From Mobula hypostoma (lineage: Eukaryota): a stretch of 64,000 nt of DNA. A model generated the notes under the pieces. That model did not search any database and was not told the origin of the DNA. It saw only the letters and a list, made by a program, of their open reading frames with translations. Each line of letters opens with the position of its first letter. Positions within the stretch are counted from its first letter, which is position 1. The position numbers and the translations under genes were made by a program. Of the stretch, positions 14,200-34,500 are shown piece after piece. Location: contig NC_086107.1 in NCBI RefSeq assembly GCF_963921235.1, positions 96,412,001-96,476,000 of the forward strand, given 5' to 3'.

Positions 14200-14328
14200 C
14201 ATAAGGCATCAAAGGATAGGCTAACGTTATTGCTTGGGGGTAACTCATCTGGGGATTTCAAGCTCAAGCCTTTGCTTGAGAATCGCTCCCTAAATCTGAG
14301 GGCACTTTGCCGTATCATTAAGGCATCA

Positions 14329-14707
14329 GCAGCGAGCACTTTTGTGCAGACAGGACAGCGTGACCAGCCTCCCACGACCAGGAGAGCAGTGCAAGTTGAG
14401 CCAGCCTCTGAGACCGACCTGGGAGCCGGCAGCCTTGACGGAGGCAGTGTGCCAGTGACGTAGGCGCCCATAAGTACGGCCCAACTCCCAGATGATTGGT
14501 GGATCACTAGCAGCTTTACATAGCCTCTGACAAGTTGCACACATGACGGACCAGGTAGGCAACAGCTGTCCAGCACACCCACCCATCCCAGACAACCTAG
14601 GGGAGAGCTGCCAGCGGGCCAGGGCAGCAAGGTCTTTGCCAGGCCTCCTGCTTCAATCTAAACACCAGAGGCTAGGCAGGATGTAGCCGACTCAAGCGTA
14701 TGCCTGC
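14329..14707 (+). mobile_element. Probable 5' UTR and ORF1 start of a Tx1-group element (possibly the head of the third Tx1 copy)
   Basis: Not Tigger sequence. CTTCAATCTAAACACC...AGGATG (14651-14683) resembles CTCCAATCTAACACC...AAGATG, which precedes ORF1 in Tx1 copies 1 and 2. Confidence 0.4.
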
Positions 14708-14759
14708 ATCGCTTCTCGGCCTTTTGGCTAAGATCAAGTGTAGTATCTGTTCTTATCAG
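14708..14759 (+). ncRNA. RNU2: U2 snRNA 5' fragment (nt 1-52), orphan and truncated
   Basis: ATCGCTTCTCGGCCTTTTGGCTAAGATCAAGTGTAGTATCTGTTCTTATCAG matches the conserved vertebrate U2 5' end and includes the branch-point recognition GTAGTA (14740-14745). No U2 3' part was seen in the window. Confidence 0.96.
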
Positions 14760-14864
14760 ACCAGAAGGCGGAGGTGAAGAGTTTGCGCTGACGCAGGGGT
14801 GGATCCTAATGCTGATTGGCCTCCAATCTAACACCCCATACCAGCGACGACAGCAGTGAGGAAG

Positions 14865-16286
14865 ATGGCAGCAGCGAGCAGTGCTCGAGGCCAAGGTATC
14901 AAGAACACTGTCAGGCTGACAGTGCGAGACCGGAACGGGGGCACCGGCTTCACCCGAGAGACCTTCATCCAGAAGGTGTTGATGGAATGCTGCGGATTTA
15001 CGCCTGACGACATCTACTGCGTCCAGGACTTCGCAGATTTTTTCGACGTGACTTTCCGGCAGGCTGCAGGGTGGCAGAAGCTGTACCAGCAGCTTCAGCT
15101 GAAGGGGACAGAGGCGCCGCTGTCGCTGTTGAAAGCACAGGCCCTCTTTGCCACGGCTACCCAGCAGGAACGGACAATCACGGTGCACATGTTCAACCCG
15201 CACGTGCCAGTGGTAGATGTCCTTACATTCCTCGCTCGGTATGTGGAGAGCGTAGGAACGCCAGCAGACGTGAAGGACGGACTGGGAATCTGGACCAGCA
15301 AACGGCAGGTCAAGGTGAAGCTGAGGTTGGACTCCAACGGCGGCGTCATCCACCCCCCCTCCGTCTTCGCCATCGGAGGGAACCGAGGGTACACGGTGTA
15401 CGCGGGGCAACCCAGGGTGTGCCGAAACTGCGGCAAGGCAGGGCACATCGCAGCCCAGTGCAGGGTGGTGATGTGCAAGAACTGCAAAACTGAAGGCCAC
15501 CTGACCAAAGACTGCACGCAGGCCAAGTCCTGCAACCTTTGTGGACAAGACGGCCACCTGTACAGAGCCTGCCCGAGGCGTGGGGGCACCTACGCACAGG
15601 CAACCAGGGGAGGTGCTGGTCCTGAAAGGGCCCAGGCAGTTTCGGACGCCCCTGCCAGCACTGCCGAAGAGGCACCCGACAGGGCGGACGATGAGACCAG
15701 GGAGGAAGGGGCAAGCACCCCGAGACCTGCCACCCCACTGCAGACCCTCCAGGACCAAGCAAACGACGAGCAGGAGTCCATGGAGGAGGGGACAGCTGAG
15801 GTGGAAACGGAATGGAAGGTCGTGAAACGGAAAAAGACCCAAAAGGCGGCGGCCAAGCGACAGAAGGCGGAGCAACGCAAGAAAAGGGCAGGGAACCACA
15901 CAGCCTCTGGTACCCTGTCCTCTTCAGAGGAGGAAGGAGTTGGGGGAGGCCAGCAGCCCCAGCGGAAGAAGCGGCTGGCAGAACAGGTGGAGAGGAGGAG
16001 AGAGGAGGGGGAAAGTCTGCTGGCCACCCCCCAAGTACAGGAGGCGGAGAGCAGCAGACACACCGAGCTCCGGGAATCCGGGAGCAGAGCCACGGTTGGC
16101 ACCCAGCAGCCGGAAGCGGAAGCAGCCCAGGAAGCCAACAACCCCCCGGGCCCAGAACCAGAACGGCCACACACGGAGGAGTACTACCAGCAGTACCTGA
16201 GCCCACAGGAGGTGGAAAACTTCACAAAGGCGGTGGGAATGAAGGCTCAGGATGGCAAGGATGAGGACGGAGTGCAGCCAAAATAA
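14865..16286 (+). CDS. Tx1 ORF1p, gag-like nucleic-acid-binding protein with three CCHC zinc knuckles (intact frame)
   Basis: CRNCGKAGHIAAQC, CKNCKTEGHLTKDC and CNLCGQDGHLYRAC; basic WKVVKRKK stretch; low-complexity C-terminus. Confidence 0.9.
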   Translation: MAAASSARGQGIKNTVRLTVRDRNGGTGFTRETFIQKVLMECCGFTPDDIYCVQDFADFFDVTFRQAAGWQKLYQQLQLKGTEAPLSLLKAQALFATATQQERTITVHMFNPHVPVVDVLTFLARYVESVGTPADVKDGLGIWTSKRQVKVKLRLDSNGGVIHPPSVFAIGGNRGYTVYAGQPRVCRNCGKAGHIAAQCRVVMCKNCKTEGHLTKDCTQAKSCNLCGQDGHLYRACPRRGGTYAQATRGGAGPERAQAVSDAPASTAEEAPDRADDETREEGASTPRPATPLQTLQDQANDEQESMEEGTAEVETEWKVVKRKKTQKAAAKRQKAEQRKKRAGNHTASGTLSSSEEEGVGGGQQPQRKKRLAEQVERRREEGESLLATPQVQEAESSRHTELRESGSRATVGTQQPEAEAAQEANNPPGPEPERPHTEEYYQQYLSPQEVENFTKAVGMKAQDGKDEDGVQPK

Positions 16287-16296
16287 AAGACCTACA

Positions 16297-19200
16297 ATGA
16301 TGGCAGACCTTAAATTGGCGTGCTTGAATGTGCGAAGTTTGAAGAGTACTGGGCGATGCGTCAGCACGCTCCAGTACCTGGACACTGTAAAGACCGACGT
16401 GACCTTCCTCCAGGAGTGCGGACTACCACATCTCCGTAACTACCGGAGATGGTCACGGTGGTGGAAAAAAGGTTTGTCTGTGTGGTCGGGGGGCAACGAT
16501 TGTTGCGCTTCCGGCCTGGGGATTCTGCTACGGGGAGGTAACTTCTCAATCACCCAAGTTAAAGAGGTGGTTGCGGGGCGCCTCCTGGTAGCAGACGTCA
16601 AATACCGGGGCACTCCGCTCCGGCTGATCAACGTGTACGCCTCCCCGGTTCGGAGCGAGCGGCTGGCCGTCTTCGAGCAGCTCCCACAGCTGCTGGTGAC
16701 GTCCCAGCCGGTCGTTCTGGCCGGAGACTTCAACTGCACCATTGATGCGGCTGGAGGACCCGGCAGCGCCGACGGCAGGCTGGACAGTACCTCCAGACTC
16801 CTGAGGGAAATAGTAAAGACGGCCAAGCTGCGCGACGCCTTTGGCACCCCCACAGGTGGAGCACGGCCGCAAGCCACCTGGACACGATCGGACGGCTCAG
16901 CCCGCTCCCGGATCGACTTCCTCTTCCTGTCAGAGCCCCTCACGGTCAGGTCCACCGACGTCACGCCGGTGTTCTTCTCTGACCACTGCCTTCTGAGAGC
17001 CACCTGTCTTTTACGGGAGGACCAGAAGGCAGGCAGGGGGACGTGGAAGCTGAATGTTCAGCTGCTGACCCCAGAGAACATCGAGGAACTAGAGAGGGAG
17101 TACACAGGTTGGAGAACCTTGAAAGCCTTCTTTGATTCCCCGGTTCACTGGTGGGAAGCCACCAAAGAGAACATTAAGAGGTTCTTCATCCGCAAGGGTA
17201 TCCAGAAGGCAAGGCAGGAGCAGAGGGAACTGCGTAAACTCCAGACAGAGTTGCAGCAACTTCTCCTTCTGCAGTCGAAGGGGGTGGATGTCAGGGAGGA
17301 ATTGCGAGAGGTGAAGGGCCGGCAAGCCCATAACCTCGCCGCCGAATCCTCCAAGATCATCTTCCGATCAAGGGTCCAAACCGTGGAGCAGGACGAGACG
17401 TGCTCACGCTTCTTCTTCCAAAAGGTGCACAGGGGGAGCTCTGTGATCCACAACCTTAAGGAAGAGGACGGCTCAGTCGCGTCCTCGCAGACCGACATAC
17501 TGAGGATCTGCAAGTCCTTCTATGCCGGTCTGTACGACGAAAAGGCCACAGAATCCACAGCCTCCCGCAACTTCCTGTCGTCTATCACGCAGGTCTTAGA
17601 CGGCGGCAAGCGGGAGAGTCTGGATCAGCCACTGACCCTGGACGAGCTGACAGGCTCCATCCGTTCCTTTGGGTCGGGTAAGACTCCCGGAAGCGACGGC
17701 TTACCGGCTGAGTTGTACTCGGCTCTGTGGAACTGGATAGGCCCAGACCTGCTGGAAGTGTACAATGCTATGCTTCTGGCCGGCAGTATGTCTGAGTCCA
17801 TGAGGAAGGGCATCATCACCCTCATCTACAAGCAGAAGGGGGAAAGAGAGGACATTAGAAATTGGAGACCCATCTCTCTCCTGAATGTGGACTACAAGAT
17901 CCTGTCCAAGGCTATCGCCAACAGGGTCAAGTCTGCTCTGGGACAGGTGATCCACCCAGACCAAACCTGTGCTGTACCAGGCAGGAAGATCTCAGACAGC
18001 CTCGCGCTGCTGAGGGACACCATCGCCTACGTGCAGGACAGGAGGGTGGACGCCTGCCTGGTCAGCTTGGACCAGGAGAAAGCCTTCGACAGGATATCGC
18101 ACACGTACATGGCGGACGTGCTCTCCAAAATGGGATTTGGGGAGGGAATCCGGAATTGGATCAGACTGCTCTACACAGACATCCGTAGTGCAGTCCAGGT
18201 CAACGGGTGGGAAACAGACAGCTTCCCCATCAGGTCTGGAGTCAGGCAGGGCTGTCCCCTCTCCCGTCTTGTTTGTCTGCTGCATAGAACCCTTTGCGGA
18301 AGCCATTAGGAGGGATGAGGGCATAAGAGGGGTGACGCTGCCAGGCAGTGGAGGGACCCAAGTGAAAACCTCCCTGTGCATGGACGACGTCACCGTCTTC
18401 TGCTCTGATCCGAGGTCAGTTCGCAGGTTGATTGGCACCTGCGAACAGTTCGAGCTAGCGTCGGGGGCCAGGGTCAACCGCACGAAGAGCGAAGCCATGC
18501 TCTTCGGCAACTGGCCCGACCGATCCAGCGTCCCCTTCAACATCAGGTCTGACCACGTGAAGGTGTTGGGGATATGGTTCGGAGGGACGGAGGCGTGCAA
18601 CAAGAACTGGCAGGAGCGGACTGCCAAGGTGAAACAGAAACTGGGACTGTGGGGAGGGCGCTCCCTGTCGATAACGGGCAAGAACCTGGTCATCAGGTGT
18701 GAGGTGCTCTCAGGGCTGCTGTACTTGGCGCAGGTCTGGCCCGTCCCCCGCTCCTACAGCTCGGAAATCACCCGGGCTGTCTTCAGATTCGTCTGGGGAT
18801 CCAAGATGGAGCGGGTGGGACGGACCGCCATGCACAAGTCCCTGGACAACGGGGGCAAGAACGTCCCCAATGTCGCCCTCACCCTGATGGCCAGTTTCGT
18901 ATGTGGCTGCATCAGGTTGTGTGTAGAGCCCAGGTATGTGGGCACCAAGTACCGCTACGTGCCCAGGTTCTACTTGTCGCCCTGGCTACGAAGGATGGGT
19001 CTGGCCCCACTCCCGCGCAACACCCCAGTCAGCTGGTCGCTGCCGGCATACCTGTCCTACGTAGCAAAGTTCTTCCAGGAGAACGCCTTTGACCACAGGG
19101 CCATCAGGCAGTGGTCGGCACGTAGTGTCCTGCAGGCACTGCACGAGAAGGACGTGATGGACACAGTGGGGTGGTTCCCTGAGCAGACTGTCCAGTTCAT

Positions 19201-19708
19201 CTGGCAAAATGCCTCATCGCCAGATCTAACCAACAGGCACCAAGACCTCGCCTGGCTGGCGGTGAGAGGGGCCCTCCCAGTCAGAGCCCTCCTGTACGCC
19301 CGGAACGTCGTCTCCGCACCCCACTGCCCACGGGAGGACTGCAGTGAGGAGGAGTCTGTGACCCACCTCTATGCACACTGCCAGTTCGCAAAGAGGGTGT
19401 GGAGGAGGATGGACGGGCTAGTGTCACGGTTTATCCCCAGCAGCTGCGTAACAGAGGACTCTCTGATCTACGGGCTGTTCCCGGGGACACACACGGTTAC
19501 CAACGTCCGGTGCTGCTGGCAGATCATCAACTCGGTGAAAGATTCTATTTGGTCGGCCCGAAACTTGATGATCTACCAGCACATGGAGATGTCCGTGGGA
19601 GAATGCTGCCGACTGGCACATTCTCGACTGCAGGAGTACGTGCTGAGGGACGCACTGAAACTCGGTGCAGCCACCGCAAGGGCCCGGTGGGGAAGGACCA
19701 CAGTATAG
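16297..19708 (+). pseudogene. Tx1 ORF2 (APE endonuclease, RT, C-terminal Cys/His domain) with one 2-bp frameshift at ~18265 and YMDD changed to CMDD
   Basis: ORFs 16252-18309 and 18137-19708: LNVRSL, FLQEC, LAGDFN, SRIDF, FSDH, LDQEKAFDR, GVRQGCPLS, CMDD, CPREDC..EESVTHLYAHC. Confidence 0.92.
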
Positions 19709-19944
19709 GTTTCTCCACCCGTGGGAGTGGGAGGGGTCGGAGGGCGGGGAGTATACCCCTCAACAATGAAATGATATGGTAAGCTGAACTACTGGAGTGC
19801 CACGTGGGTGGCTATAAATACGGATATGTACTGTGTATAATGCAAACGTATGTAAAGGATGAAAAGTTATTGAATGGTTTATTGTATATATTTATTTTTG
19901 AATAAAGTATATTTTGAAATTAAAAAAAAATCTGTTCTTATCAG

Positions 19945-22900
19945 ACCAGAAGGCGGAGGTGAAGAGTTCGCGCTGACGCAGGGGTGGATCCTAATGCTCA
20001 TTGGCCTCCAATCTAACACCCCATACCAGCGACGACAGCAGTGAGGAAGATGGCAGCAGCAAGCAGTGCATCGGCTCGAGGCCAGGGTATCAAGAACACT
20101 GTCAGGCTGACAGTGCGAGACCGGAACGGGGGCACCGGCTTCAACCGAGAGACCTTCATCCAGAAGGTCATGATGGAACGCTGCGGATTTACGCCCGACG
20201 ATATCTACTGCGTCCAGGACTTCGCAGGTTTCTTCGATGTCACTTTCCGGCAGGCTGCAGGGTGGCAGAAGCTGTACCAGCAGCTTCAGCTGAAGGGGAC
20301 AGATGCGCCGCTGTCACTGCTGAAAGCACAGGTCCTCTTTGCAACGGCTACCCAGCAGGAACGGACAATCACGGTGCACATGTTCAACCCGCACGTGCCA
20401 GTGGTAGATGTCCTTACATTCCTCGCTCGGTATGTGGAGAGCGTAGGAACACCAGCAGACGTGAAGGACGGACTGGGAATCTGGACCAGCAAACGGCAGG
20501 TCAAGGTGAAGCTGAGGTTGGACTCCAACGGCGGTGTCATCCACCCCCCCTCCGTCTTCGCCATCGGAGGGAACCGAGGGTACACGGTGTACGCGGGGCA
20601 ACCCAGGGTGTGCCGAAACTGCGGCAAGGCAGGGCACATCGCAGCCCAGTGCAGGGTGGTGATGTGCAAGAACTGCAAAACCTAAGGCCACCCAACCAAA
20701 GACTGCACGCAGGCCAAGTCCTGCAACCTTTGTGGACAAGCCGGCCACCTGTACAGAGCCTGCCCGAGGCGTGGGGGCACCTACGCACAGGCAACCAGGG
20801 GAGGTGCTGGCCCTGAAAGGGCCCAGGCAGTTTCGGACGCCCCTGCCAGCACTGCAGAAGAGGCACCCGACAGGGCGGACGATGAGACCAGGGAGGAAGG
20901 GGCAAGCACCCCGAGACCTGCCACCCCACTGCAGACCCTCCAGGACCAAGCAAACGACGAGCAGGAGTCCATGGAGGAGGGGACAGCTGAGGTGGAAACG
21001 GAATGGAAGGTCATGAAACGGAAAAAGACCCAAAAGGCGGCGGCCAAGCGACAGAAGGCGGAGCAACGCAAGAAAAGGGCAGGGAACCACACAGCCTCTG
21101 GTACCCTGTCCTCTTCAGAGGAGGAAGGAGTTGGGGGAGGCCAGCAGCCCCAGCGGAAGAAGCGGCTGGCAGAACAGGTGGAGAGGAGGAGAGAGGAGGG
21201 GGAAAGTCTGCTGGCCACCCCCCAAGTACAGGAGGCGGAGAGCAGCAGACACACCGAGCTCCGGGAATCCGGGAGCAGAGCCACGGTTGGCACCCAGCAG
21301 CCGGAAGGGGAAGCAGCCCAGGAAGCCAACAACCACCCCGGGCCCAGAACCAGAACGGCCACACACGGAGGAGTACTACCAGCAGTACCTGAGCCCACAG
21401 GAGGTGGAAAACTTCATGAAGGCTCAGGATGGCAAGGATGAGGACGGAGAGCAGCCAAAATAAAAGACCTACAATGATGGCAGACCTTAAATTGGCATGC
21501 TTGAATGTGCGAAGTTTGAAGAGTACTGGGCGATGCGTCAGCACGCTCCAGTACCTGGACACTGTAAAGACCGACGTGACCTTCCTCCAGGAGTGCGGAC
21601 TACCACACCTCCGTAACTACCGGAGGTGGTCACGGTGGTGGAAAAAAGGTTTGTCTGTGTGGTCGGGGGGCAACGATTGTCGCGCTTCCGGCCTGGGGAT
21701 TCTGCTACGGGGAGGTAACTTCTCAATCACCCAAGTTAAAGAGGTGGTTGCGGGGCGCCTCCTGGTAGCAGACGTCAACCGAAGTTAAAGAGGTGGTTGC
21801 GGGGCCCCTCCTGGTAGCAGACGTCAAATACCGGGGCACTGCGCTCCGGCTGATCAACGTGTACGCCTCCCCCGTTCGGAGCGAGCGGCTGGCCGTCTTC
21901 GAGCAGCTCCCATAGCTGCTGGTGACATCCCAGCCGGTCGTTCTGGCCGGAGACTTCAACTGCACCATTGATGCGGCTGGAAGACCCGGCAGCACCGACG
22001 GCAGGCTGGACAGTACCTCCAGACTCCTGAGGGAAATAGTAAAGACGGCCAAGCTGCGCGACGCCTTTGGCACCCCCACAGGTGGAGCACAGCCGCAAGC
22101 CACCTGGACACGATCGGACGGCTCAGCCCGCTCCTGATCGACTTCCTCTTCCTGTCGGAGTCCCTCACGGTCAGGTCCACCGACGTCACGCCAGTGTTCT
22201 TCTCTGACCACTGCCTTCTGAGAGCCACCTGTCGTTTACGGGAGGACCAGAAGGCAGGCAGGGGGACGTGGAAGCTGAATGTTAAGCTGCTGACCCCAGA
22301 GAACAGCGAGGAACTAGAGAGGGAGTACACAGGTTGGAGAACCTTGAAAGCCTTCTTCGATTCCCCGGTTCACTGGTGGGAAGCCACCAAGGAGAACATT
22401 AATAGGTTCTTCATCCGCAAGGGTATCCAGAAGGCAAGGCAGGAGCAGAGGGAACTGCGTAAACTCCAGACAGAGTTGCAGCAATTTCTCCTTCTGCAGT
22501 CGAAGGGGGTGGATGTCAGGGAGGAATTGCGAGAGGTGAAGGGCCGGCAAGCCCATAACCTCGCCGCCAAATCCTCCAAGATCATCTTCCGATCAAGGGT
22601 CCAAACCGTGGAGCAGGACGAGACGTGCTCACGCTTCTTCTTCCAAAAGGTGCACAGGGGGAGTTCTGTGATCCACAACCTTAAGGAAGCGGACGGCTCA
22701 GTCGCGTCCTCGCAGACCGATATACTGAGGATCTGCAAGTCCTTCTATGCCGGTCTGTACGACGAAAAGGCCACAGAATCCACAGCCTCCCGCAACTTCC
22801 TGTCGTCTATCACGCAGGTCTTAGACGACGGCAGGCGGGAGAGTCTGGATCAGCCACTGACCCTGGACGAGCTGACAGGCTCCATCCGTTCCTTTGGGTC

Positions 22901-25160
22901 GGGTAAGACTCCCGGAAGCGACGGCTTACCGGCTGAGTTGTACGCGGCTCTGGGGAACTGGATGGGCCCAGACCTGCTGGAAGTGTACAACGCTATGCTT
23001 CTGGCCAGCAGTATGTCTGAGTCAATGAGGAAGGGCATCATCACCCTCATCTACAAGCAGAAGGGGGAAAGGGAGGACATTAGAAATTGGAGACCCATCT
23101 CTCTCCTGAATGTGGACTACAGGAGCCTGTCCAAGGCTATCGCCAACAGGGGCAAGTCTGCTCTGGGACAGGTGATCCACCCAGACCAAACCTGTGCTGT
23201 ACCAGGCAGGAAGATCTCAGACAGCCTCGCGCTGCTGAGGGACACCATCACCTACGTGCAGGACAGGAGGGTGGACGCCTGCCTGGTCAATTTGGACCAG
23301 GAGAAAGCCTTCGACAGGATATCGCACACGTACATGGCGGACGTGCTCTCCAAAATGGGATTTGGGGAGGGAATCCGGAATTGGATCAGACTGCTCTACA
23401 CAGACATCCGTAGTGCAGTCCAGGTTAACAGGTGGGAAACAGACAGCTTCCCCATCAGGTCTGGAGTCAGGCAGGGCTGTCCCCTCTCCCCTGTCTTGTT
23501 TGTCTGCTGCATAGAACCCTTTGCAGAAGCCATTAGGAGGGATGAGGGCATAAGAGGGGTGACGCTGCCAGGCAGCGGAGGGACCCAAGTGAAAACCTCC
23601 CTGTACATGGACGACGTCACCGTCTTCTGCTCTGATCCGAGGTCAGTTCGCAGGTTGATTGGCACCTGCGAACAGGTCGAGCTAGCGTTGGGGGCCAGGG
23701 TCAACCACACGAAGAGCGAAGCCATGCTCTTCGGCAACTGGCCCGACCGATCCAGCGTCCCCTTCACCATCAGGTCTGACCACGTGAAGGTGTTGGGGAT
23801 CTGGTTCGGAGGGGCGGAGGCGTGCAACAAGAACTGGCAGGAGCGGACTGCCAAGGTGAAACAGAAACTGGGACTGTGGGGAGGGCGCTCCCTGTCGATA
23901 ACGGGCAAGAACCTGGTCATCAGGTGTGAGGTGCTCTCAGGGCTGCTGTACTTGGCGCAGGTCTGGCCCGTCCCCCGCTCCTACAGCTCGGAAATCACCC
24001 GGGCTGTCTTCAGATTCTTCTGGGGATCCAAGATGGAGCGGGTGGGACGGACCGCCATGCACAAGTCCCTGGACAACGGGGGCAAGAACGTCCCCAATGT
24101 CGCCCTCACCCTGATGGCCAGCTTTGTATGTGGCTGCATCAGGTTGTGTGTAGAGCCCAGGTATGTGGGCACCAAGTACCACTATGTGCCCAGGTTCTAC
24201 TTGTCGCCCTGGCTACGAAGGATGGGTCTGGCCCCACTCCCGCACAACGCCCCAGTCAGCTGGTCGTTGCCGGCATACCTGTCCTACGTAGCAAAGTTCT
24301 TCCAGGAGAACGCCTTTGACCACAGGGCCATCAGGCAGTGGTCGGCACGTAGTGTCCTGCAGGCACTGCAGGAGAAGGACGTGATGGACACAGTGGGGTG
24401 ATTCCCTGAGCAGACTGTCCAGTCCATCTGGCAAAATGCCTCATCGCCAGATCTAACCAACAGGCACCAAGACCTCGCCTGGCTGGCGGTGAGAGGGGCC
24501 CTCCCAGTCAGAGCCCTCCTGTGCGCCCGGAACGTCGTCTCCGCACCCCACTGCCCACGGGAGGACTGCAGTGAGGAGGAGTCTGTGACCCACCTCTTTG
24601 CACACTGCCAGTTCGCAAAGAGGGTGTGGAGGAGGATGGACGGGCTAGTGTCACCGTTTATCCCCAGCAGCTGCCTAACAGAGGACTCTCTGATCTACGG
24701 GCGGTTCCCGGGGACACACATGGGGACCAACGTCCGGTGCTGCTGGCAGATCATCAACTCGGTGAAAGACGCTCTTTGGTCGGCCCGAAACTTGATGATC
24801 TACCAGCACATGGAGATGTCCGTGGGAGAATGCAGCCGACTGCCACATTCTCGGCTGCAGGAGTACGTGCTGAGGGACGTACTGAAACTCGGTGCAGCCA
24901 CCGCAAGGGCCCGGTGGGGAAGGACCACAGTATAGGTTTCTCCACCCGTGCGATTGGGAGGGGTCGGAGGGAGGGGAGTATACCCCTCAACAATGAAATG
25001 ATATGGTAAGCTGAACTACTGGAGTGCCACGTGGGTGGCTATAAATACGGATATGTACCGAGTATAATGGAAACGTATGTAAAGGATGAAAAGTTCTTGA
25101 ATGGTTTATTGTATATATTTATTTTTGAATAAAGTATATTTTGAAATTAAATAAAAAAAA
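19945..25160 (+). mobile_element. Keno-like Tx1 retrotransposon, copy 2 (full length, several stops and frameshifts)
   Basis: Nearly identical to copy 1 from ACCAGAAGGCGG to the poly(A). Stops at 20683 and 24399, a ~46-bp tandem duplication at 21733-21827, YMDD intact. Confidence 0.93.
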
Positions 25161-28100
25161 TCTCTTCCCATTAGGGGTCGCAGGAGAGAACAGTTACGGT
25201 ACACATGCTTAATCCCTATGTACCGGTCGTCGACGTTCTCACTTTTCTAGCACGTTATGTGGAGAGAGTGTGGAGGTGTGAGGACGTTGACGAAATTCTG
25301 GAGGTTTGGACATCTAATCGGCTGGTCAGGGTTAAGTTAAGGACGGACACCAATGGCTGTGTCATCCACCCACCCTCCGTCTTTGCGATAGGAGGGAACC
25401 GGGGCTACCTGGTTTACGCCGGACAACCGAAACTGCGCCGAAACTGCGGCAAGGCAGGGCACATCACGGCCCAGTGTAAGGCTGTGGTGTGCAGAAATTG
25501 CAAGGTGGAGGGACACCTTACCAAAGACTGCATGGAGGCCAAATCCTGCAACCTCTATGGGCAGGCGGGCCACCTTTATAGGACCTGTCCGAAACGGGTG
25601 GGCTCCTATGCACAGGTGGCCAGGGGTAGTGATGACATCGGGATAGCCCCAGCTGGAGTGGAGGTGCCCGCCGTCTCTGTAGAGGAGATGTAGGTTGCGA
25701 TGGAGGGACAAGAGCCCAGCCTGGGCTCCCCCTCCACCTTGCAGGACACCCAATACCCCCCGCTTGATGAGGGTTCAATGGAAGAGGGGAGGGCCGAGGG
25801 GGAAGAGGAAAAGTGGAGGGTGGTCACAAAACGAAAAAAGACCCTAAAGATGCCGCCAAAAAGACAAAGGGCGGAGAAATTGGAGAGCTCTAAAAAGAGA
25901 GAGGTTGAGCATCACTCGTCCTCTGAGCACCTGTCTTCCTCGGAGGAGGGCGGTGGGGGTGGCCAGAAACCCCGACAGAGGAAGAGGCGGGTTAATCGGG
26001 CAGAGGAGAGTCAGGGGAAGAGTGAAGGTCTGCTAGCCACCCCCCAGTCGCAGGATGGGGGGATCAGCAGAGTCTCTCAGCTCCGGGAATCCGGGAGCAG
26101 TCATACTTCTGGTGGTCTGCAGCCAGATGGAGGGGCGCCCCTGGAGGTTCCATTTGGTGCCGAACCAGTGGCGCCCCTCCCTGGCAGGGAGTACCAGCAG
26201 TACCTGAACCCTCAGCAGGTGGAAGACTTCACCAGGACTGTGGGGATGAGGCCTCCAGACGGGAAAGAAGAGAACGAGGATTTATAAAAGGTGATGGACC
26301 TTAAACTGGCATCTTTAAACCTTCGCAGTGTGAAGAGTACTGGGCGTTGCGTCAGCACGCTTCGGTACTTGAACACTGTGAACGCCAACGTGACCTTCCT
26401 GCAGGAGTGCGGTCTGCCGCACCTCAGGAGTTATCGACGGTGGTGGTCCCAGGGTTTGTCGGTGTGGTCGGGGGGCAACGATGGTCACGCTTCCGGCCTG
26501 GGGATTCTGCTGCGGGGAGGCAACTTCTCAATCACCCAAGTTAAAGAGGTGGTTGCGGGGCGCCTCCTGGTAGCAGACGTCAAATACCGGGACACACCAC
26601 TCCGGCTGATCAACGTGTACGCCTCCCCCGTTCGGAGCGAGCGGCTGGCCATCTTCGAGCAGCTCCCAAAGCTGCTGGTGACGTCCCAGCCGGTCATTCT
26701 GGCCGGAGACTTCAACTGCACCATTGATGCGGCTGGACGACCCAGCAGCACCGACGGCAGGCTGGACAGTACCTACAGACTCCTGATGGAAACTGTAAAG
26801 GCAGCCAAGCTGCGCAACGCCTGTGGCACCCCCACAGGAGGAGCACAGCCGCAAGCCACCTGGACACGATCGGACGGCTCAGCCCGCTCCTGGATCGACT
26901 TCCTCTTCCTGTCAGAGTCCCTCACGGTCAGGTCCACCGACATCACGCCGGTGTTCTTCTCTGACCACTGCCTTCTGAGAGCCACCTGTCGTTTACGGGA
27001 GGACCAGCAGGCAGGCAGGGGGACGTGGAAGCTGAATGTTAAGTTGCTGACCCCAGAGAACATCGAGGAACTAGAGAAGGAGTACACAGGTTGGAGAACC
27101 TTGAAAACCTTCTTTGATTCCCCGGTTCACTGGTGGGAAGCTACCAAGGAGAACATTAGGAGGTTCTTCATTCGCAAAGGTATCCAGAAAGCAAGGCAGG
27201 AGCAGAGGGAACTGCGTAAACTCCAGACAGAGTTGCAGCAACTTCTCCTACTGCAGTCGAAGGGGGTGGATGTCAGGGAGGAACTGCGAGAGGTGAAGGG
27301 CCGGCAAGCCCAGCACCTCGCCGCCGAATCCTCCAAGATCATCTTCCGATCAAGGGTCCAAACCGTGGAGCAGGACGAGACGTGCTCACGCTTCTTCTTC
27401 CAAAAGGTGCACAGGGGGAGCTCTGTGATCCACAACCTTCAGGAAGAGGACGGCTCAGTCGCATCCTCGCAGACCGACATACTGCGGATCTGCAAGTCCT
27501 TCTATGCCGGTCTGTACGACGAAAAGGCTACAGAATCCACAGCCTCCCGCAACTTCCTGTCGTCTATCACGCAGGTCTTAGACGACAGCAAGCGGGAGAG
27601 TCTGGATCAGCCACTGACCCTGGACGAGCTGACAGGCTCCATCCGTTCCTTTGGGTCGAGTAAGACTCCCAGAAGCGATGGCTTACCGGCTGAGTTGTAA
27701 TCGGCTCTGTGGAACTGGATGGGCCCAGACCTGCTGGAAGTGTACAACGCTATGCTTCTGGCGGGTAGCATGTCTGAGTCCATGAGCAAGGGCATCATCA
27801 CCCTCACCTACAAGCAGAAGGGGGAAAGGGAGGACATTAGGAATTGGAGACCCATCTCTCTCCTGAATGCGGATTACAAGATCCTGTCCAAGGCTATCGC
27901 CAACAGGGTCAGGTCAGCTCTGGGACAGGTGATTCATCCAGACCAAACCTGTGCTGTACTGGGCAGGAAAATCTCAGACAACCTCACGCTGCTGAGGGAC
28001 ACCATTGCCTACGTGCAGGACAGGAGGGTGGACGCCTGCCTGGTCAGCTTGGACCAGGAGAAAGCCTTCGACAGGATATCGCACACGTACATGGCGGACG

Positions 28101-29962
28101 TGCTCTCCAAAATGGGATTTGGGGAGGGAATCCGGAATTGGATCAGACTGCTCTACACAGACATCCGTAGTGCAGTGCAGGTCAACGGGTGGGAAACCGA
28201 CTGCTTCCCCATCAGGTCTGGAGTCAGGCAGGGCTGTCCTCTCTCCCGTCTTGTTTGTGTGCTGCATAGAACCCTTTGCGGAAGCCATCAGGAGGGATGG
28301 GGGCATAAGAGGGGTGACGCTGCCAGGCAGTGGAGGGACCCAAGTGAAAACCTCCCTGTACATGGACGACGTCACCGTCTTCTGCTCTGATCCGCGGTCA
28401 GTTCACAGGTTGATTGGCACCTGCGAACAGTTCGAGCTTGCGTCGGGGGCCAGTCTCAACCGCACGATGAGCGAAGCCATGCTCTTCGGCAACTGGCCAG
28501 ACCGATCCAGCGTCCCCTTCACCATCAGGTCTGACCACACGAAGGTGTTGGGGATCTGGTTCGGAGGGGCTGAGGCGTGCAACAAGAACTGGCAGGAGCG
28601 GACTGCCAAGGTGAAACAGAAACTGGGACTGTGGGGAGGGCGCTCCCTGTCGATAACAGGCAAGAACCTGGTCATCAGGTGTGAGATGCTCTCAGAGCTG
28701 CTGTACTTGGCGCAGGTCTGGCCCGTCCCCCGCTCCTACAGCTCGGAAATCACCCGGGCTGTCTTCAGATTCGTCTGGGGATCCAAGATGGAGCGGGTGA
28801 GACGGACCGCCATGCACAAGTCCCTGGACAATGGGGGCAAGAACGTCCCCAATGTCGCCCTCACCCTGATGGCCAGCTTCGTGTGTGGCTGCATCAGGTT
28901 GTGCATGGATCCCAGATACGTGGGCACAAAGTACTACTATGTGCCTAGGTTTTACCTGTCGCCCTGGCTACGAAGGATGGGTCTGGCTTCTTTCCCGCGC
29001 AACACCCCTGTCAGCTGGTCGTTGCCCCCTTACCTGTCCTTCGTAGAAAAATTCTTCAAGACCAACACATTTGACCACAGGGCCATTAGACAGTGGTCGG
29101 CACGTAACGTCCTGCAGGCACTGCAGGAGAAGGACGTGATGGACACAGTGGGGTGGTTCCCTGAGCAGACTGTCCAGTTCATCTGGCAAAATGCCTCATC
29201 GCCAGATCTCAGCAACAGGCACAAAGACCTAGCCTGGCTGGCGGTGAGAGGGGCCCTCCCAGTCAGATCCCTCCTGTACGCCCGGAACAGTTCCTCCACA
29301 CCCCGTTGCCCACGGAAGGACTGTAATGGGGTGGACTCGGTGGCTCACCTCTTTGCACACTGTGGGTTCGCAAAGAAGGTGTGGAAGGCACAGTACTAAG
29401 ATTCATGCCCAGCAGCTGCGTAACAGAGGACTCTCTGATCTATGGGCTGTTCCCGGGGACGCACACGGAGACAAACATCCGGTCCTGCTGCCAGATCATC
29501 AATTCGGTGAAAGACGCTCTTTGGTCAGCCCGAAACTTGATGGTCTGCCAGCAGATGGAGATGTCCGTGATTCAATGCTGCAGACTGGCTCACTCTCGTC
29601 TGCAGGAGTCCGTGCTGAGGGATGCACTCAAACTTGGTGCGGCCACCACGAAGGCCCAGTGGGGAAGGACCACAGTTTAACGTTCATCACCCGTAGGAGG
29701 GGGAGAGGTTGGGTGGGGAGGAGACCTACCCTCATCAGCGGTGTGGACAGATAATCAACATGGTGCCCAAGGAGTGGGTGGAATTGTTAATTTGGGAAAG
29801 TATTAGAGCCATTGCCTGCCTTTATTGTTGATAATTTGATTGTTAATAAGTTTTAACTCTTGACCAAGGGTTGAGAGTAAACGCATGATTTATTGTAAAC
29901 ATCTTTCATTTGTAAATGAACAGAGTCAACGCAAAATTTTTATTGTTAATAACTGTATTGAA

Positions 29963-30809
29963 ACCTCCGGTTAAACCGAAAGCTACGGATTTCCCCCCGA
30001 CTGAATCACCGGTGACTTTGAAAGCGATATCGGAGTTAATTCAGAGGGAAATTTCAACCTCTGTTAGGGAGATGATTCGTACGGAAATTGCAGGCTCTGT
30101 TAAAGACCTGATTCATACGGAAATCTCAACTAATTTCCAGAAAATTGCCGATTCAATGGATAAGATGCAAACATTTATTGCGGAACATCAGTCGGCTATA
30201 TCTGATCTTCAAAAATTCGTGCAACAAAGTGAGCTTAAGATGGGGAAAATCGAAGAAACAATTAATGTAATGAAGAAGAAACTTGACTTTTTGACTTTTA
30301 AAAACTCTGACTTGGAATCTAGAATGCGACGGCAGAATTTACGAATGATCGGGGCGAGGGAAGCTGTTGAATCCAACAACCCCATGAAATATTTTTCTCA
30401 ACTTTTAAAAGATGCATTCCCTACTGTATTTCCTGACCAACCACCGCTTCTGGATCGTGTTCACAGAATCCCATCATACTCGTCTAGGTCAGATAGACCT
30501 AGGCATGTTATTTTACGTTTTCATTATTTTCAAGACAAGGAGAGACTGTTTCGATTCGCTCGATCTAAAGGTTTCATTGATTTTTCGGATCTTAAGTTCC
30601 GATTCGTGGAAGATTTCAGTAAACCAATCTGGGACCAACAGGTTCGTTACAGATCCGTGATGTCGGAATTCTATAAGATGGATTTAAGACCAGCGCTGCT
30701 GTACCCTGCACGTCTAAGGATTCGCATGTCAGATGGAGCCCTTCGTTTTTTTGATTCTCCATCGGATGCCCAGAGTTATATGGATCAACTTTCATCTTCA
30801 ACATCTTAA
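29963..30809 (+). CDS. L1 ORF1p (coiled coil, RRM, CTD), N-terminus truncated at the insertion point
   Basis: DLESRMRRQNLRMIG, LDRVHRI, PRHVILRF, RFVEDFS and LLYPARLRI are typical L1 ORF1p motifs. Confidence 0.85.
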
Positions 30810-31527
30810 TTGCCTTTTTTTAATTATCTCCGTTGGATCGGAGGCTGTGAATTGGTTGGTTTTAACTTTTTCGTGCCCTATCTGGGCAGAAAAGTTTATT
30901 TTTGATTTCTTAATATGGTTGCTAAACTTTCTTTTTAACTGCGTCATTTCTTTCTTTTCCCAGGGGATTCTGGGTGGTTACTTCCCTTTTGTCATCTTAC
31001 GTATTTCCTGTGTGGCCTTAAATTTTGTAGTTTTTTTTAAATTTTATTCTGTTTTGCTTTTTATAACCACTTTATGTCCATAATCCTATTTTTTCTTGTT
31101 GCTGTGTCTATTCATGGGTTTGAGGTTTATTGTGGTTTTTTTTAATATATATTTTCCGGCTTTTGTTCTGTTCTGTGTGTATTTTAATTGAGCTAACTTT
31201 TTTTTTTACTTACTTTTTTACTGTTTTACAATTAGCTGATCCTTTTCATATTTATACCTTTTTTTTTTAGGGAGCGTATACCGGAAGTCATGGGGGTAGT
31301 TTTAGCGCTTGCTTCTCTCTGGCGGGTCTGCTTTAGATTTTGCCTTGGGGTCTTGGGGCGGTGGGAGGGGCTTCACGTTTTAGTTTGTTTCTCTTTGGGC
31401 TATATACATTATTGAAGTACTGGTTGCGTCCTTTTTCCCGGTATCTTTTGTATGTTCTGTTTCCTCTCCGGGTTTGTGGGTCGCGCCTATCGTCAATCCT
31501 CCTTGTTGTGGGTTGACTTTAGGATTT

Positions 31528-34500
31528 ATGGAGTCTATTATTAATTTTGTCTCCTGGAATACTAATGGTCTTAATCATCCTATTAAAAGGAAAAAAGTTT
31601 TTAAAGTGTTCCGGAGACTTAAAGCACAAATTTTATTTTTACAAGAGACCCATGTACGGAGGGGGGACAGACTACGTTTTTTCAAATTCTGGAAGGGACA
31701 ACAATTTCATTTGAACTCCAATGCTAAGATTCGAGGTGTCTCTATTTTTATAGATTCCTCAGTTACTTTTATACAACAGGATATTATCTCTGATCCGAAT
31801 GGTGGATTTTTATTGGTTAGTGGTTTACTATTTAATAAAAAAGTAGTTTTGGTTAATGTTTATGCTCCTAATATGGATTGTCCGGAATTTTATAAATCAT
31901 TGTTTGATCAGTTTCCGAATTTGAACGAGTTTTCATTGATCTGGGGCGGAGATCTTAATACCTGTTTGTCTCCAGCTTTGGACCGTTCGGCTCCTTTACG
32001 GACTTTACCTAATAAATCTGCAAATCTGATTAATTTTTTCCTTTCTGATTCTGGGTCGACGGACATTTGGCGTTTTCTGCATCCTCAGGAAAAAGATTTT
32101 TCCTTCTTTTCACATGTTCATCATTCCTATTCAAGAATTGATTATTTTTTCATTGATTCTCGTCTTATTCCTTCAGTGATTAAATGTGATTATGATTCTA
32201 TAACCATTTCGGATCATGCTCCACTTAAGCTTTCTATTAAAATTATGGCCAATATACCAAATAATAGACAATGGTGTTTTAATTCGCTGTTGCTTCAGGA
32301 CTCGGACTTTGTTAATTTTATGAATGAACAGATTGAGCTTTTTTTTACAATTAACCATACAGAAGATATTTCGGTTAACACTCTTTGGGACACTTTTAAA
32401 GCCTATATTCGGGGTCAGATTATTTCGTATTCTGTTGCTTTGAGGAAGAAACAGAAGCAGGAGGAGATGGCAATTGTGGACAAGATTAAAGAAATTGATA
32501 AGAAATATGTTATGGCTCCTTCTGAGGAGTTATACAAACAAAGAACTGAACTTCAAATGGAACACAGTTTACTACTCTCGTCCTCGATTGTAAACCAATT
32601 AAAGAAAACAAGAAGTGACTTTTATGTTCACAGTGACAAAATTGGCAAGCTGCTGGCTAATCAATTGAAATCTAATTATGTTAAATCTCAAATCAATCAG
32701 ATTTATAACCAAAATGATCGATTGATATTGGATCATGTGGGGATTAATCAAACCTTTTGTGATTTTTATTCTTCTTTATATCAATCAGAGTCTCCTCGAG
32801 ATTCTAAATATATGAATGATTTTTTAGATAAGTTAGACTTCCCTCAGATTTCACAGGATATGTCTTCTTTATTAGATACTTCCATTACAATGGATGAGAT
32901 TAAGAATGTTATTTTTTCTATGAATCTGGGGAAAGCTCCTGGCCCTGATGGGTTTACCGTTGAATTTTATAAATGTTTTGCTTCTTTATTGATTCCTTGG
33001 CTCTGTAAGGTTTTTGAGGCTTCTTTGAAACTTGGTAAACTTCCTGAATCTTTTAATAGAGCATCAATTTCTCTAATACTAAAGAAGGATAAAGACCCTG
33101 CTCAATGTGCATCTTATAGACCAATATCTTTATTAAATGTTGATTCTAAAGTTTTTTCTAAGTTATTAGCAAATAGACAAGAAAAAGTACTTCCTTCTAT
33201 TATTTCGGAAGACCAAACGGGTTTTATTAAAGGTCGTTACTCTTTTTATAATATTCGTACATTGTTAAATATCGTTTATACTCCCTCACAAAATGTTCCT
33301 GAGTGTGTTATTTCTTTAGATGCCGAGAAAGCTTTTGATAGAGTAGAATGGCCTTATTTATTTAAGGTGCTTGAAATGTTTAACTTTAGCTTGAAATTTA
33401 TATCCTGGATTAAACTGTTATATCACTCCCCTGTAGCCTCGGTTCGTACTAACTCTTTAAACTCACCTTTTTTTCCTCTCTTTCATGGTACTCGACAAGG
33501 CTGTCCTCTTAGTCCCCTATTATTTGATATTGCATTAGAACCTCTTGCAATTGCTATTCGAGAATCTTCAAATATTACTGGGATAACTCGGGGATTAAAG
33601 TCCCATAAATTATCACTCTATGCTGATGATTTACTTTTATATATTTCTAATCCTGAGAGATCCATTCCTGCTGTTTTAGAGTTATTAGCACAATTTGGTC
33701 TTTTCTCAGGTTATAAATTAAATCTTAGTAAGAGTGAACTTTTTCCGATTAATAAACATCTTCCCTTATATTATAAATTTCCATTTAAATTGATTAATAA
33801 TTACTTTTCATATCTTGGGATTAAAATTACTTGTAAATACAAAGATTTATTTAAGACTAACTTTTTACCATTAATAGACCATATTACTCAACTTTCATCT
33901 AAATGGTTTCCCTTATATTTAACTTTGATTGGTCGTATTAATGCAGTTAAGATGTTTTTTTTGCCAAAATTTTTATATGTGTTTCAGGCATTACCAATTT
34001 TCGTTCCCAAATCTTTTTTTGATAAAGTTGACTCTAAAATTTCTTCATTTATTTGGCAGAATAAGAATCCGAGACTGGGTAAAATACATTTACAGAAAGC
34101 TAAGAGAGATGGAGGTTTAGCACTACCTAACTTTAGATTCTATTATTGGGCTATTAATATTCGACATATGAAATTTTGGTTACTTGACCAGGACATACTA
34201 CCTATTCCTAAATGGGTAGCATTGGAATTACAATCTGTTCAGGGTTATACACTTGGTTCTATTTTAGGCTCCTCTCTCCCTTTTGATTCGAATCGTCTTA
34301 AGCAGGTCTCTAACCCGATAGTTAAATATGCTTTGCGCATTTGGTTTCAATTCAGAAAATTTTTTGATCTTAATCAATTCGGGTTAGCGATTCCTATTTT
34401 AGGTAATATATTTTTTCCTCCCTCTTTTACGGATCGCGCTTTTCAAACTTGGAAGACTAAGGGTATTTTACGGTTTTTGGATTTATTTTTAGATGGTTCC

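Follow-up and report, generated by a model that had tools for sequence, protein, structure and literature searches.

The R2 and R1 elements are co-transcribed with the rRNA genes and depend on the promoter of the multicopy RNA gene that they interrupt, and R2 removes the upstream rRNA by means of a ribozyme. Keno elements, as summarized in the sections of PMC4494074, PMC4640811 and PMC6136364 that cite Kojima and Fujiwara 2004, are APE-type non-LTR retrotransposons of the Tx1 group that are specific for U2 snRNA genes, and their published target has the 3' flank TCTGTTCTTATCAGTTTAAT (PMC6136364, PMC4640811). In crocodilians, the Tx1-Mar families and Tx1-11_Crp bear 5' heads derived from U1 or U2 and no longer reside in U2 genes; the relevant section of Kojima 2015 (PMC4494074), which also mentions the R2/R1 elements, ascribes these heads to template switching or to trans-mobilised snRNA. 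Here, we describe a locus at which a U2 leader joined to such an element stands behind its own U2 flank, inside a DNA transposon.

The window, i.e., the whole stretch of 64,000 nucleotides that was analyzed, holds a nest of elements (14328-35739) within a pogo/Tigger-like copy that is interrupted at 14327 and continues at 35740. Its features are the following.

14200..14327, + strand: left part of a pogo/Tigger-like DNA transposon (family of ~25 copies); 25 other genomic copies align, then stop at 14327
14328..14337, + strand: 10-nt filler at the left junction, matching neither Tigger nor the U2 flank
14338..14707, + strand: genuine U2 5' flank, -370 to -1, matching 27 array units at 97-98%
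14708..14759, + strand: U2 snRNA nt 1-52, the leader (Rfam U2, 66.8 bits)
14760..19930, + strand: Keno copy 1, assigned from Pfam domains, ORF layout and tree position
19931..19944, + strand: target-site duplication of U2 nt 39-52 between copies 1 and 2 (TCTGTTCTTATCAG), identical to 14746-14759
19945..25160, + strand: Keno copy 2, both ORFs broken, with a poly(A) tail; 96.9-97.4% identity to copy 1
25161..25172, + strand: Tigger target-site duplication, upstream copy (TCTCTTCCCATT, with one change of CpG type), corresponding to 35740-35751 and to the break point in intact Tigger copies
25173..29962, + strand: main body of the sister element K3, 5'-truncated within ORF1, recognized by similarity to Keno and by dispersed relatives
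29963..35639, + strand: nested L1-like element (Pfam), with a Transposase_22 ORF1, an open 1306-aa ORF2 frame and poly(A)
35651..35739, + strand: 3' tail of K3 with poly(A), adjoining K3 3' UTR matches at >10 other loci
35740..36047, + strand: Tigger resumes (TCTCTTCCCGTTATTTGGAAGG...), beginning with the downstream duplication copy (L054 and L055 alignments)

The Rfam search of the window returned U2 at 14708-14759, with a score of 66.8 bits against a gathering score of 46 and the 5' part alone aligned, and no other RNA family. The leader joins the non-LTR element exactly at nt 52 (14759/14760), and U2 nt 53-188 is absent from the whole window, an intact U2 unit aligning at 14338-14759 alone. 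In these respects, the earlier note, made from the letters of this DNA, was right: it had described U2 nt 1-52 fused to a non-LTR element (now supported by APE, RT and zf-RVT domains), the lack of a U2 3' half and a position inside a Tigger, for which DDE_1 gives a weak match (E=0.034, under the Pfam cut-off, over profile positions 1-32). It had also taken the DNA upstream of the leader for unrelated, TE-like sequence without an snRNA promoter, and here it was mistaken. Over 422 bp (14338-14759), the window is 98.6% identical to the intact array unit L020, which contains a complete U2 (Rfam, 189 bits), and a genuine U2 flank at this place, found here at 98% identity to 27 array units, was the outcome that the note itself had set against its reading.

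Positions 14338-14707 are the genuine U2 5' flank (-370 to -1) and, as judged from sequence, the presumed promoter region. This flank is found 31 times genome-wide (31 of 31 candidates scored), i.e., in 27 array units, one inverted unit, the window and two partial pieces; the window flank is 97-98% identical to the array units and 94% identical to the diverged inverted one. The window copy of flank and leader shows 6 private differences per 422 aligned bases, all within the flank, and the leader has none relative to the array units. When the flank was compared with that of another U2 locus in search of PSE and DSE elements, the score was 16, against a mean of 12.9 and a maximum of 23 for shuffles, and neither motif was identified in the 370 bp. 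The segment 14338-14759 is not a full U2 gene (~188 nt plus 3' box), since it holds nt 1-52 alone, preceded by the native upstream flank. An ectopic cassette of presumed promoter plus target is present at the window locus.

Keno copy 1 comprises a 105-nt 5' UTR, ORF1 (ATG at 14865, ending at 16286), ORF2 (16243-19708), AATAAA and an A9 tail (19922-19930). ORF1 encodes two ZCCHC3-type RNA-binding domains and CCHC knuckles, and ORF2, which bears one frameshift between the frames 16243-18309 and 18014-19708, encodes APE, RT and zf-RVT domains (Pfam: Exo_endo_phos, 3.1e-14; RVT_1, 1e-21; zf-RVT, 1.2e-9). The best named protein match comes from a ray (82% identity), and the nearest named relatives are unnamed amphibian RT proteins (47-48% identity). 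The element is probably a Tx1-type LINE of the Keno lineage. The earlier note had delimited its block as 14708..19944; the junction of leader and element stands, but the end at 19944 is that of the U2 nt 39-52 duplication, which is followed by a second Keno copy (97%) and a 5'-truncated sister, both of which had been missed. The 14-bp sequence TCTGTTCTTATCAG occurs twice in the window against 0.05 expected, and the joint of A(n), TCTGTTCTTATCAG and Keno is found by exact match at six places on the window's contig, five elsewhere in the U2 cluster and the window itself. Copy 2, which carries 24 private changes per 1500 bases and retains two ancestral states common to older dispersed copies, is older than copy 1, which carries 10 in its first 1500 bases.

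Relatives of K3 align from 25173 on, directly 3' of the Tigger duplication copy at 25161-25172. K3 is 75-84% identical to Keno in ORF1 and 92% identical over 3434 bp of ORF2, and it represents a high-copy dispersed family (1662 first-look genome candidates); the 39 full-length matches scored at other loci, at 92-98% identity, stop at 29962 or a few bases from it. The L1-like element, whose ORF2 is 27% identical to that of Keno, is bounded by the target duplication ACTGTATTGAA at 29952-29962 and 35640-35650; the K3 halves are contiguous at other loci, with coordinates overlapping by ~15 nt, which argues that this element is nested in K3. The intact Tigger copies L054 and L055 go on with the sequence seen at 35740 (L054 positions 62-397 versus 35739-36047, 82% identity; L055 versus 35739-35822, 95%), and these two fetched copies of the family are uninterrupted at the insertion site. 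With 8 of 14 positions in common with the U2 duplication (P ~0.01), the Tigger site resembles the U2 target (A|TCTCTTCCC versus A|TCTGTTCTT), and it was probably used twice, by Keno copy 2 and by K3. A search for poly(A) followed by the Tigger site gave one genome match, the window's own, and thus no recurrent targeting of this Tigger family. At the left junction, 12 nt (14327-14338) recur unchanged in Keno at 14869-14880, just 3' of the ORF1 ATG; an overlapping 12-mer (14326-14337) recurs at 54390, so the identity between filler and Keno may be due to chance.

A tandem U2 array with a 2.74-kb unit lies 200-300 kb from the window on the same contig and in the same orientation. Its 27 units comprise 21 intact and 6 Keno-occupied ones. 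The 3' junction L052 reads poly(A), U2 nt 38-188 and 3' flank (99.7% identity), and the junctions L051 and L053 read poly(A), target duplication (partial in L051) and truncated Keno. We show that the endonuclease of Keno places its nick in U2 genes at nt 38/39, that nt 39-52 are duplicated upon insertion, and that the order in occupied array units is flank, U2 1-52, Keno, A(n), U2 39-188. Head-to-tail runs arise by repeated insertion into the retained U2 1-52. A U2/Keno cluster that is inverted in orientation and diverged in sequence lies between the array and the window (contig positions 96.256-96.277 Mb), indicating that the region has been rearranged.

Searching the genome for the U2/Keno junction pattern yielded 44 matches, against 0 in a reversed control, 13 of them on the window's contig and 31 elsewhere. 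All 31 dispersed copies begin inside the leader (11 at +1, 10 at nt 2-6 and 10 at nt 8-35), and none has the U2 flank upstream of it, L063 being ambiguous. In L063, 8 nt located 7 nt upstream of +1 match the final 8 nt of the flank. Among 20 dispersed copies fetched whole (19 with a judgeable 3' end), the U2 3' half (nt 39-188) never follows the element, and both ORFs are open in two. Exact duplications of 8-16 nt enclose leader, element and poly(A) in 7 of the 19, while none of 342 mismatched flank pairs, taken as a control, reaches 7 nt; a flanking repeat of at least 4 nt is absent in 9 of the 19, and three others have 4-6 nt only. Apart from a few common repeats, the flanks are mutually unrelated. 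These data establish that, elsewhere in the genome, full-length copies have their 5' end at U2 +1 or slightly within U2 and a poly(A) at their 3' end. The presence of the leader in all dispersed relatives examined suggests that the family may be transcribed from the U2 genes that it interrupts.

A wider census (U2 nt 23-52, then a non-T base) gave 60 matches, namely, 32 Keno junctions, 26 intact U2, one U2 variant and one other partner. We considered a template-switch chimera of the U6/L1 type, in which the reverse transcriptase would jump from Keno RNA onto U2 snRNA; such snRNA-LINE chimeras are known in mammals, as cited in a section of PMC4494074. In the U6/L1 type, a LINE with variable 5' truncation is linked to the 3' end of an snRNA or to the entire snRNA. 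However, a jump of this kind would add U2 from its 3' end, whereas here nt 1-52 only is found, ending at the Keno target boundary. All 32 junctions found connect U2 nt 1-52 to Keno nt 1, and this reading was rejected as scarcely credible.

At least 715 family 3' ends are found genome-wide (2 in the reversed control), against ~27 intact U2 targets, and most copies are therefore off-target. Among the first 100 family 3' ends listed, hand reading found none with U2 as 3' flank, and a hand tally of the same set, with five ambiguous rows dropped, showed TCT after the tail mildly in excess (10/95 versus ~2 expected). Target specificity for U2 genes is weak and falls short of a strict one. In a midpoint-rooted tree built from 28 copies (first 1500 bases of each) and read informally, without support values, window copy 1 groups closely with the array copies at the tips. 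Three dispersed copies are nested within this tight cluster, with 6-8 differences from the array majority. The older dispersed copies branch one by one below this cluster, with long terminal branches and few internal branches common to dispersed copies. This topology bears on the idea that the leader is now part of an element with an internal promoter, the dispersed copies being autonomous sources and the U2 promoter irrelevant. The idea is in line with the crocodilian Tx1 families that cluster with Keno and bear U1/U2 heads outside snRNA genes, and with the two dispersed copies whose ORFs are both open. Yet U2 promoters are external (both points as given in the pertinent part of PMC4494074), and the branch lengths, the scarcity of shared internal branches and the placement of the youngest dispersed copies among array copies make such autonomy improbable.

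The best explanation overall, which we regard as likely, is a Keno-lineage LINE relying on the U2 promoter, with the window locus as a third kind of copy. Keno would have no promoter of its own and would be transcribed from the U2 promoter of the interrupted gene, the chimeric U2(1-52)-Keno RNA serving as the template for new insertions. Copies landing back in U2 genes would keep the promoter link, and the off-target copies, which are far more numerous, would probably be silent, the leader persisting in them as a scar. In the window, copy 1 sits at the canonical nt 38/39 position of a segment made of 370 bp of true U2 flank and U2 1-52. Promoters of the snRNA type generally work together with 3'-box processing and are not known for producing long polyadenylated RNAs. 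We count against U2-promoter dependence that Keno has AATAAA and a poly(A) tail, unlike the expected snRNA-type 3'-box output, and that the 5' ends are also compatible with an internal promoter starting at the inherited leader. The negative PSE/DSE comparison, the dispersed copies with short flanking repeats or none and the flank-like 8 nt of L063 count on the same side.

The earlier note had proposed that a chimeric U2-Keno RNA starting at +1 integrated off-target, with 14708 as the 5' end of the copy 1 insertion. The proposal gains strong support from the 31 dispersed copies, whose 5' junctions it had suggested tabulating, and from the six occupied array units, where it had advised looking for family members; the locus itself, inside Tigger, ~200 kb from the array and without a U2 3' half, is off-target and looks like the dispersed ones. 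Such an arrival is conceivable for copy 2, whose poly(A) is directly followed by the Tigger duplication. For copy 1, however, 370 bp of true U2 upstream flank run unbroken up to +1 and place the left junction at -370; since an RNA starting at +1 cannot yield the upstream flank, this origin of copy 1 is very improbable.

Retrotransposition of a read-through RNA whose start lay 370 nt or more in front of an occupied U2 gene could have brought promoter, leader and Keno together to the Tigger site, or else placed them within the leader of copy 2. Such 5' transduction fits the right end, where a poly(A) directly meets the nick site also used by a second LINE, and the left junction, which, with its 10-nt filler and only 2 nt of the duplication kept, resembles untidy LINE 5' joins; part of PMC4494074 describes transcripts of SINEU-2 and SVA that start upstream and include flanking sequence. 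This route is nevertheless rather unlikely: the flank is missing from the 31 dispersed copies (L063 being ambiguous), the one further ectopic piece of flank lies on another contig and has no link to Keno, the different ages of copies 1 and 2 make a single dimer RNA unlikely, and deletion of an earlier leader has to be assumed. Alternatively, ectopic gene conversion, break repair or a small segmental duplication may have copied flank, leader and Keno from the array onto an off-target Keno copy already in Tigger. The donor array shares its contig and its orientation with the window, an exchange could start in the long stretches of Keno homology, the inverted cluster in between marks a rearranged region, and short templated filler is also typical of end joining. 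Since a second breakpoint is not demonstrable, the tested array dimer is not the donor of copy 2 (96.8% identical, copy 2's private changes not being common to the dimer) and the flank divergence (6/370) cannot tell which copy the flank came with, we entertain this DNA-level route as a plausible but tentative account.

Compared with described Keno elements, the family shares an ORF2 with APE, RT and zf-RVT, a zinc-knuckle ORF1, tandem runs inside U2 genes and an insertion ~37-38 nt into U2 with the 3' flank TCTGTTCTTATCAGTTTAAT (seen in L052 and, in the window, in A9 + TCTGTTCTTATCAG). It differs in its cartilaginous fish host, in the dispersal that accompanies its weak specificity and in that every examined full-length off-target copy retains the U2 1-52 leader. 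Utopia, according to the portion of PMC4640811 concerned, uses the same 3' flanking U2 site and occasionally forms tandem insertions, but it is of the RLE type (restriction-like endonuclease) rather than APE and belongs to an unrelated lineage. If the RNA route is right, the 370-bp flank would parallel L1/SVA 5' transduction, in which upstream host sequence is carried along (SVA-MAST2, as cited in a passage of PMC4494074), although here the cargo would be an snRNA promoter and the element's own target. The crocodilian Tx1-Mar families and Tx1-11_Crp, in the account given by that part of PMC4494074, share with our element a place in the Tx1 lineage near Keno, a U2-derived 5' sequence and insertion into a DNA transposon of the Tc1/mariner superfamily. 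In our case, however, the head is exactly the upstream half of the target, promoter-linked array copies coexist with dispersed ones, and, unlike in Tx1-Mar, the Tigger site is used at one locus only. The R2/R1 elements belong to different clades, and here the leader stays on the copies, with no other RNA family in the window; like them, the family described here would lack its own promoter, and the upstream target sequence on its RNA could guide the 5' join.

The junction between the start of U2 snRNA and a Keno-like Tx1 element, which an earlier note had read from the sequence, is real. The sole Rfam match in the window is U2 at 14708-14839 (66.8 bits; gathering score, 46), yet U2 in this alignment is limited to its first 52 nt, and a non-LTR element runs on from 14760. 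Among named proteins, the best match to this element comes from a ray (82% identity), followed by amphibian proteins (47-48%), which agrees with the elasmobranch source guessed in the earlier note. The locus is a nest of insertions between two halves of a pogo/Tigger-like copy.

Features of the nested locus, in order along the forward strand (window positions)
up to 14327: first Tigger half, followed by a 10-nt filler
14338-14707: U2 flank, -370 to -1
14708-14759: U2 nt 1-52
14760-19930: Keno copy 1, a non-LTR element with a 105-nt 5' UTR, ORF1, ORF2, AATAAA and A9
from 14865 (ATG): copy 1 ORF1, with two ZCCHC3-type RNA-binding domains and CCHC knuckles
downstream of ORF1: copy 1 ORF2, with APE, RT and zf-RVT domains, its frame split by one frameshift
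19922-19930: A9 at the 3' end of copy 1, after AATAAA
19931-19944: U2 nt 39-52
19945-25160: Keno copy 2 with poly(A), followed by TCTCTTCCCATT
25173-29962 and 35651-35739: K3, a 5'-truncated sister element, its poly(A) ending at 35739
29963-35639: L1-like element within the K3 3' UTR; its ORF1 is of the Transposase_22 type, and its ORF2 frame is open over 1306 aa
from 35740: continuation of Tigger

The genome was searched with 14329-14900 as the query and, separately, with the flank alone. On the same contig, 200 to 300 kb upstream of the window, lies a tandem U2 array with a period of about 2.74 kb, whose units are 99% identical to 14338-14759. All 31 candidates of the flank search were scored: besides the window itself, these are 27 units of the array (97-98%), a single inverted unit that has diverged to 94%, and two incomplete pieces. 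The DNA upstream of the junction, previously described as unrelated and TE-like, is therefore the U2 5' flank. An intact array unit (L020) contains a full U2 (189 bits), followed by what we take to be a 3'-box-like sequence, and matches the window solely at 14338-14759 (98.6%); the earlier note had itself held a genuine U2 flank at this place to speak against its retrocopy reading. Within the array, 21 units are intact across the target and 6 carry a Keno junction, so that family members do reside in true U2 genes. Of three array 3' junctions fetched, one consists of poly(A), U2 nt 38-188, and the downstream flank at 99.7%, and the other two of poly(A), the duplication (partial in one), and a 5'-truncated Keno.

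Between the main array and the window lies an older, inverted U2/Keno cluster (C45, 96255799-96276928, minus strand), with four minus-strand Keno junctions at 96.256-96.271 Mb spaced by about 5161 bp. Beside these junctions is an older, diverged U2 unit, 94% identical in its flank, which reaches beyond -370. The flank was also aligned to three other U2 loci: two look like retrocopies with unrelated flanks, and the third has two blocks in common with the flank at matching distances from +1, with scores not above those of shuffles. A lone 198-bp flank piece (-221 to -24, 92% identity) is found at C12:125332279-125332476, and C55:15068729-15068868 matches the flank from -181 to -12 at 72%, perhaps because it is the promoter region of another, divergent U2 locus. 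A second transduction was considered for the lone C12 piece and rejected, as it stops at -24 and gives way to unrelated DNA.

Genome-wide, the U2/Keno junction pattern gave 44 matches (reversed control, 0), of which 13 share the contig of the window and 31 lie elsewhere. A wider census, which required U2 nt 23-52 and then any base but T, gave 60 matches: 32 Keno junctions, 26 intact U2 sequences, one U2 variant, and one other partner. Twenty of the 31 dispersed copies were read whole and the other 11 by the 5' junction alone, so that statements on 3' ends and duplications rest on 19 to 20 of 31. Each of the 20 is close to full length, with an identity of 93-99% to copy 1. Tabulating the 5' junctions, as the earlier note had proposed, placed every dispersed start within U2 nt 1-35: 11 at nt 1, 10 at nt 2-6, and 10 at nt 8-35. 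The U2 part always stops at the target boundary, which excludes an origin by template switching. None of the 31 has the flank (one, L063, is ambiguous), and none of the 20 is followed by the U2 3' half (19 with a judgeable 3' end). Exact flanking repeats of 8-16 nt border 7 of 19 copies, while no mismatched flank pair reaches 7 nt (0/342); in 9 of 19, a flanking repeat of 4 nt or more is absent. Apart from a few shared repeats, the flanks are mutually unrelated. The proposal of off-target retrocopies bearing a U2 leader thus holds across the genome, but not in its simple form for window copy 1, which is preceded by 370 bases of U2 flank. The original observation is partly confirmed and its interpretation partly supported. 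The family is a Keno lineage with weak target specificity. On its retrocopies, the U2 start site is marked by the leader that it borrowed, and the window contains an unusual ectopic copy bearing the U2 flank.

A search for leaderless full-length copies, which left the 20 bases ahead of Keno nt 1 free, gave 121+135 matches, about as many as its reversed control (105+114), so that only the exact matches are informative. The family's 3'-terminal 17-mer occurs at least 715 times (control, 2), and therefore most copies are off-target; presumably, most of these are 5' truncated, and a SINE with the same tail may account for part of the occurrences. By a hand tally of the first 100 listed 3' ends (5 ambiguous ones dropped), TCT directly follows the tail in 10 of 95, with about 2 expected. 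Five of these first 100 ends (C1, C2, and C5) continue with TCTCATAT or TCCCATAT, which may reflect either another target within a repeat that was hit more than once or the duplication of loci. At L041 (C22, near 6.56 Mb), an off-target tandem reads 5'-truncated Keno, GCTTGTCTT, full-length leader-bearing Keno, GCTTGTCTT; either a single non-U2 site received two insertions or one event gave rise to both. Two dispersed copies on C9 (L034 and L035) lie about 60 nt apart in copies of one repeat family, and their flanks have a 41-nt match at 90%.

The claim that the block sits inside a Tigger is borne out. The Tigger copy, from a family of about 25 with a weak DDE_1 match (E=0.034), breaks at 14327 and resumes at 35740, and uninterrupted copies read ...aaggca|tctcttcccgttatttggaagg across the break. 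By its surroundings, the window locus is off-target. A copy of the Tigger break sequence with one CpG-type change, TCTCTTCCCATT, stands between the poly(A) of copy 2 and K3; thus, both poly(A) tails are joined to one Tigger nick, A|TCTCTTCCC. Of the 14 positions of the U2 duplication, 8 are shared by the nick site (P of about 0.01). Tigger as a recurrent secondary target was rejected, the combination of poly(A) and this site having a single occurrence in the genome, the window's own. At the left junction, the filler has a 12-nt identity with the start of Keno ORF1, to which no weight is given, since a 12-mer overlapping it also turns up at another place in the window. Adjoining the Tigger fragment is a very abundant repeat (13700-14202; 3751 first-look candidates at 93-96% identity) that ends at 14202 and whose ORF has no Pfam match. 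Retroelement debris with RT and zf-RVT fragments and an integrase core (rve) occupies 1336-4476, 9355-11699, and 45113-46469, together with a GDSL-lipase-like ORF adjoining an RT fragment and an ALKBH8_N-like match.

The block had been taken to end at 19944; this position closes a duplication of U2 nt 39-52 that follows the A9 tail of copy 1, and beyond it copy 2, missed in the earlier note, runs to 25160. The duplicated string, TCTGTTCTTATCAG, stands directly after A9 and is identical to 14746-14759 (2 matches in the window, 0.05 expected). In PMC6136364 and PMC4640811, the 3' target of Keno is given as TCTGTTCTTATCAGTTTAAT, about 37 nt into U2. With A9, U2 nt 39-52, and copy 2 in succession, and the string being the published target, the arrangement is therefore a canonical head-to-tail Keno run. 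The later Keno copy struck the U2 nt 1-52 retained upstream of the earlier one, duplicating nt 39-52. The two copies are 97% identical. Both ORFs are broken in copy 2, which is the older, as it has 24 private changes per 1500 bases (copy 1, 10) and 46 differences from the array majority (copy 1, 22). Since copy 2 is older and its private changes are absent from the array dimer tested, a single dimer as the source, whether it moved as RNA or was duplicated as DNA, is unlikely and was rejected.

K3 belongs to a high-copy, dispersed family (1662 first-look candidates). Its identity to Keno is 92% over ORF2 and 75-84% in ORF1, and its 3' UTR also differs, suggesting a modular or recombinant relative. 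The L1-like element inside it is bordered by an 11-nt target duplication, ACTGTATTGAA, and its ORF2 is 27% identical to that of Keno; the K3 halves are contiguous in more than 10 other loci.

A midpoint-rooted tree was built with FastTree from 28 copies, each represented by its first 1500 bases; an insertion within L049 distorts the row of that copy. The tree places the array copies and window copy 1 in a tight tip cluster, with three dispersed copies nested inside and older dispersed copies branching off singly below. Both ORFs are open in 2 of the 20 dispersed copies. The tree, which is not a formal test, fits sources that stay in promoter-linked sites.

How did the flank reach the Tigger site? 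It has 6 private differences in 370 bases, and the divergence counts of the flank, copy 1, and copy 2 do not tell which copy it arrived with. Both an RNA and a DNA route fit. We lean, tentatively, toward the DNA route, in which the nearby array would have been the donor in an ectopic conversion or repair event. Delivery by a 5'-extended read-through transcript seems rather unlikely, as no other retrocopy carries the flank, L063 being ambiguous, and the sole stray flank piece is unlinked to Keno. On that less likely RNA route, the start of the transcript would have lain 370 nt or more upstream of a U2 gene occupied by Keno, and its retrotransposition into a U2-target look-alike in Tigger would have been an RNA-mediated move of a U2 promoter. 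The cassette outside the array would then comprise a borrowed promoter, a leader, and a Keno copy, and the leader would double as the element's target, struck again at nt 38/39. If so, a target-dependent LINE would carry its own promoter and landing site along. On a wider view, the family would provide a natural example of a 5-kb polyadenylated RNA made from an snRNA-type Pol II promoter.

Whichever route applies, this genome is a clean natural data set: the U2 array contains copies linked to a promoter, the U2 start site is recorded in the 5' ends of dozens of dated copies lying off target, and a single ectopic copy has brought the U2 flank with it. A testable question also arises, namely whether an snRNA promoter can yield a long polyadenylated RNA. 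In the portions of the literature covered, we found no description of U2 +1 leaders on dispersed Keno copies, which the original Keno paper may partly cover. Transcription of promoterless site-specific LINEs is documented for rRNA-gene elements and, in the literature covered, no more than conjectured for snRNA-gene elements. A parallel is found in crocodilians, where, according to PMC4494074, Tx1 families with U1 and U2 “heads” cluster with Keno and insert into mariner. The heads are ascribed there to template switching or trans-mobilisation, cotranscription being raised merely as a possibility. For these unexplained U1/U2 heads of the crocodilian Tx1 and SINEU families, the Mobula hypostoma genome offers a living intermediate.
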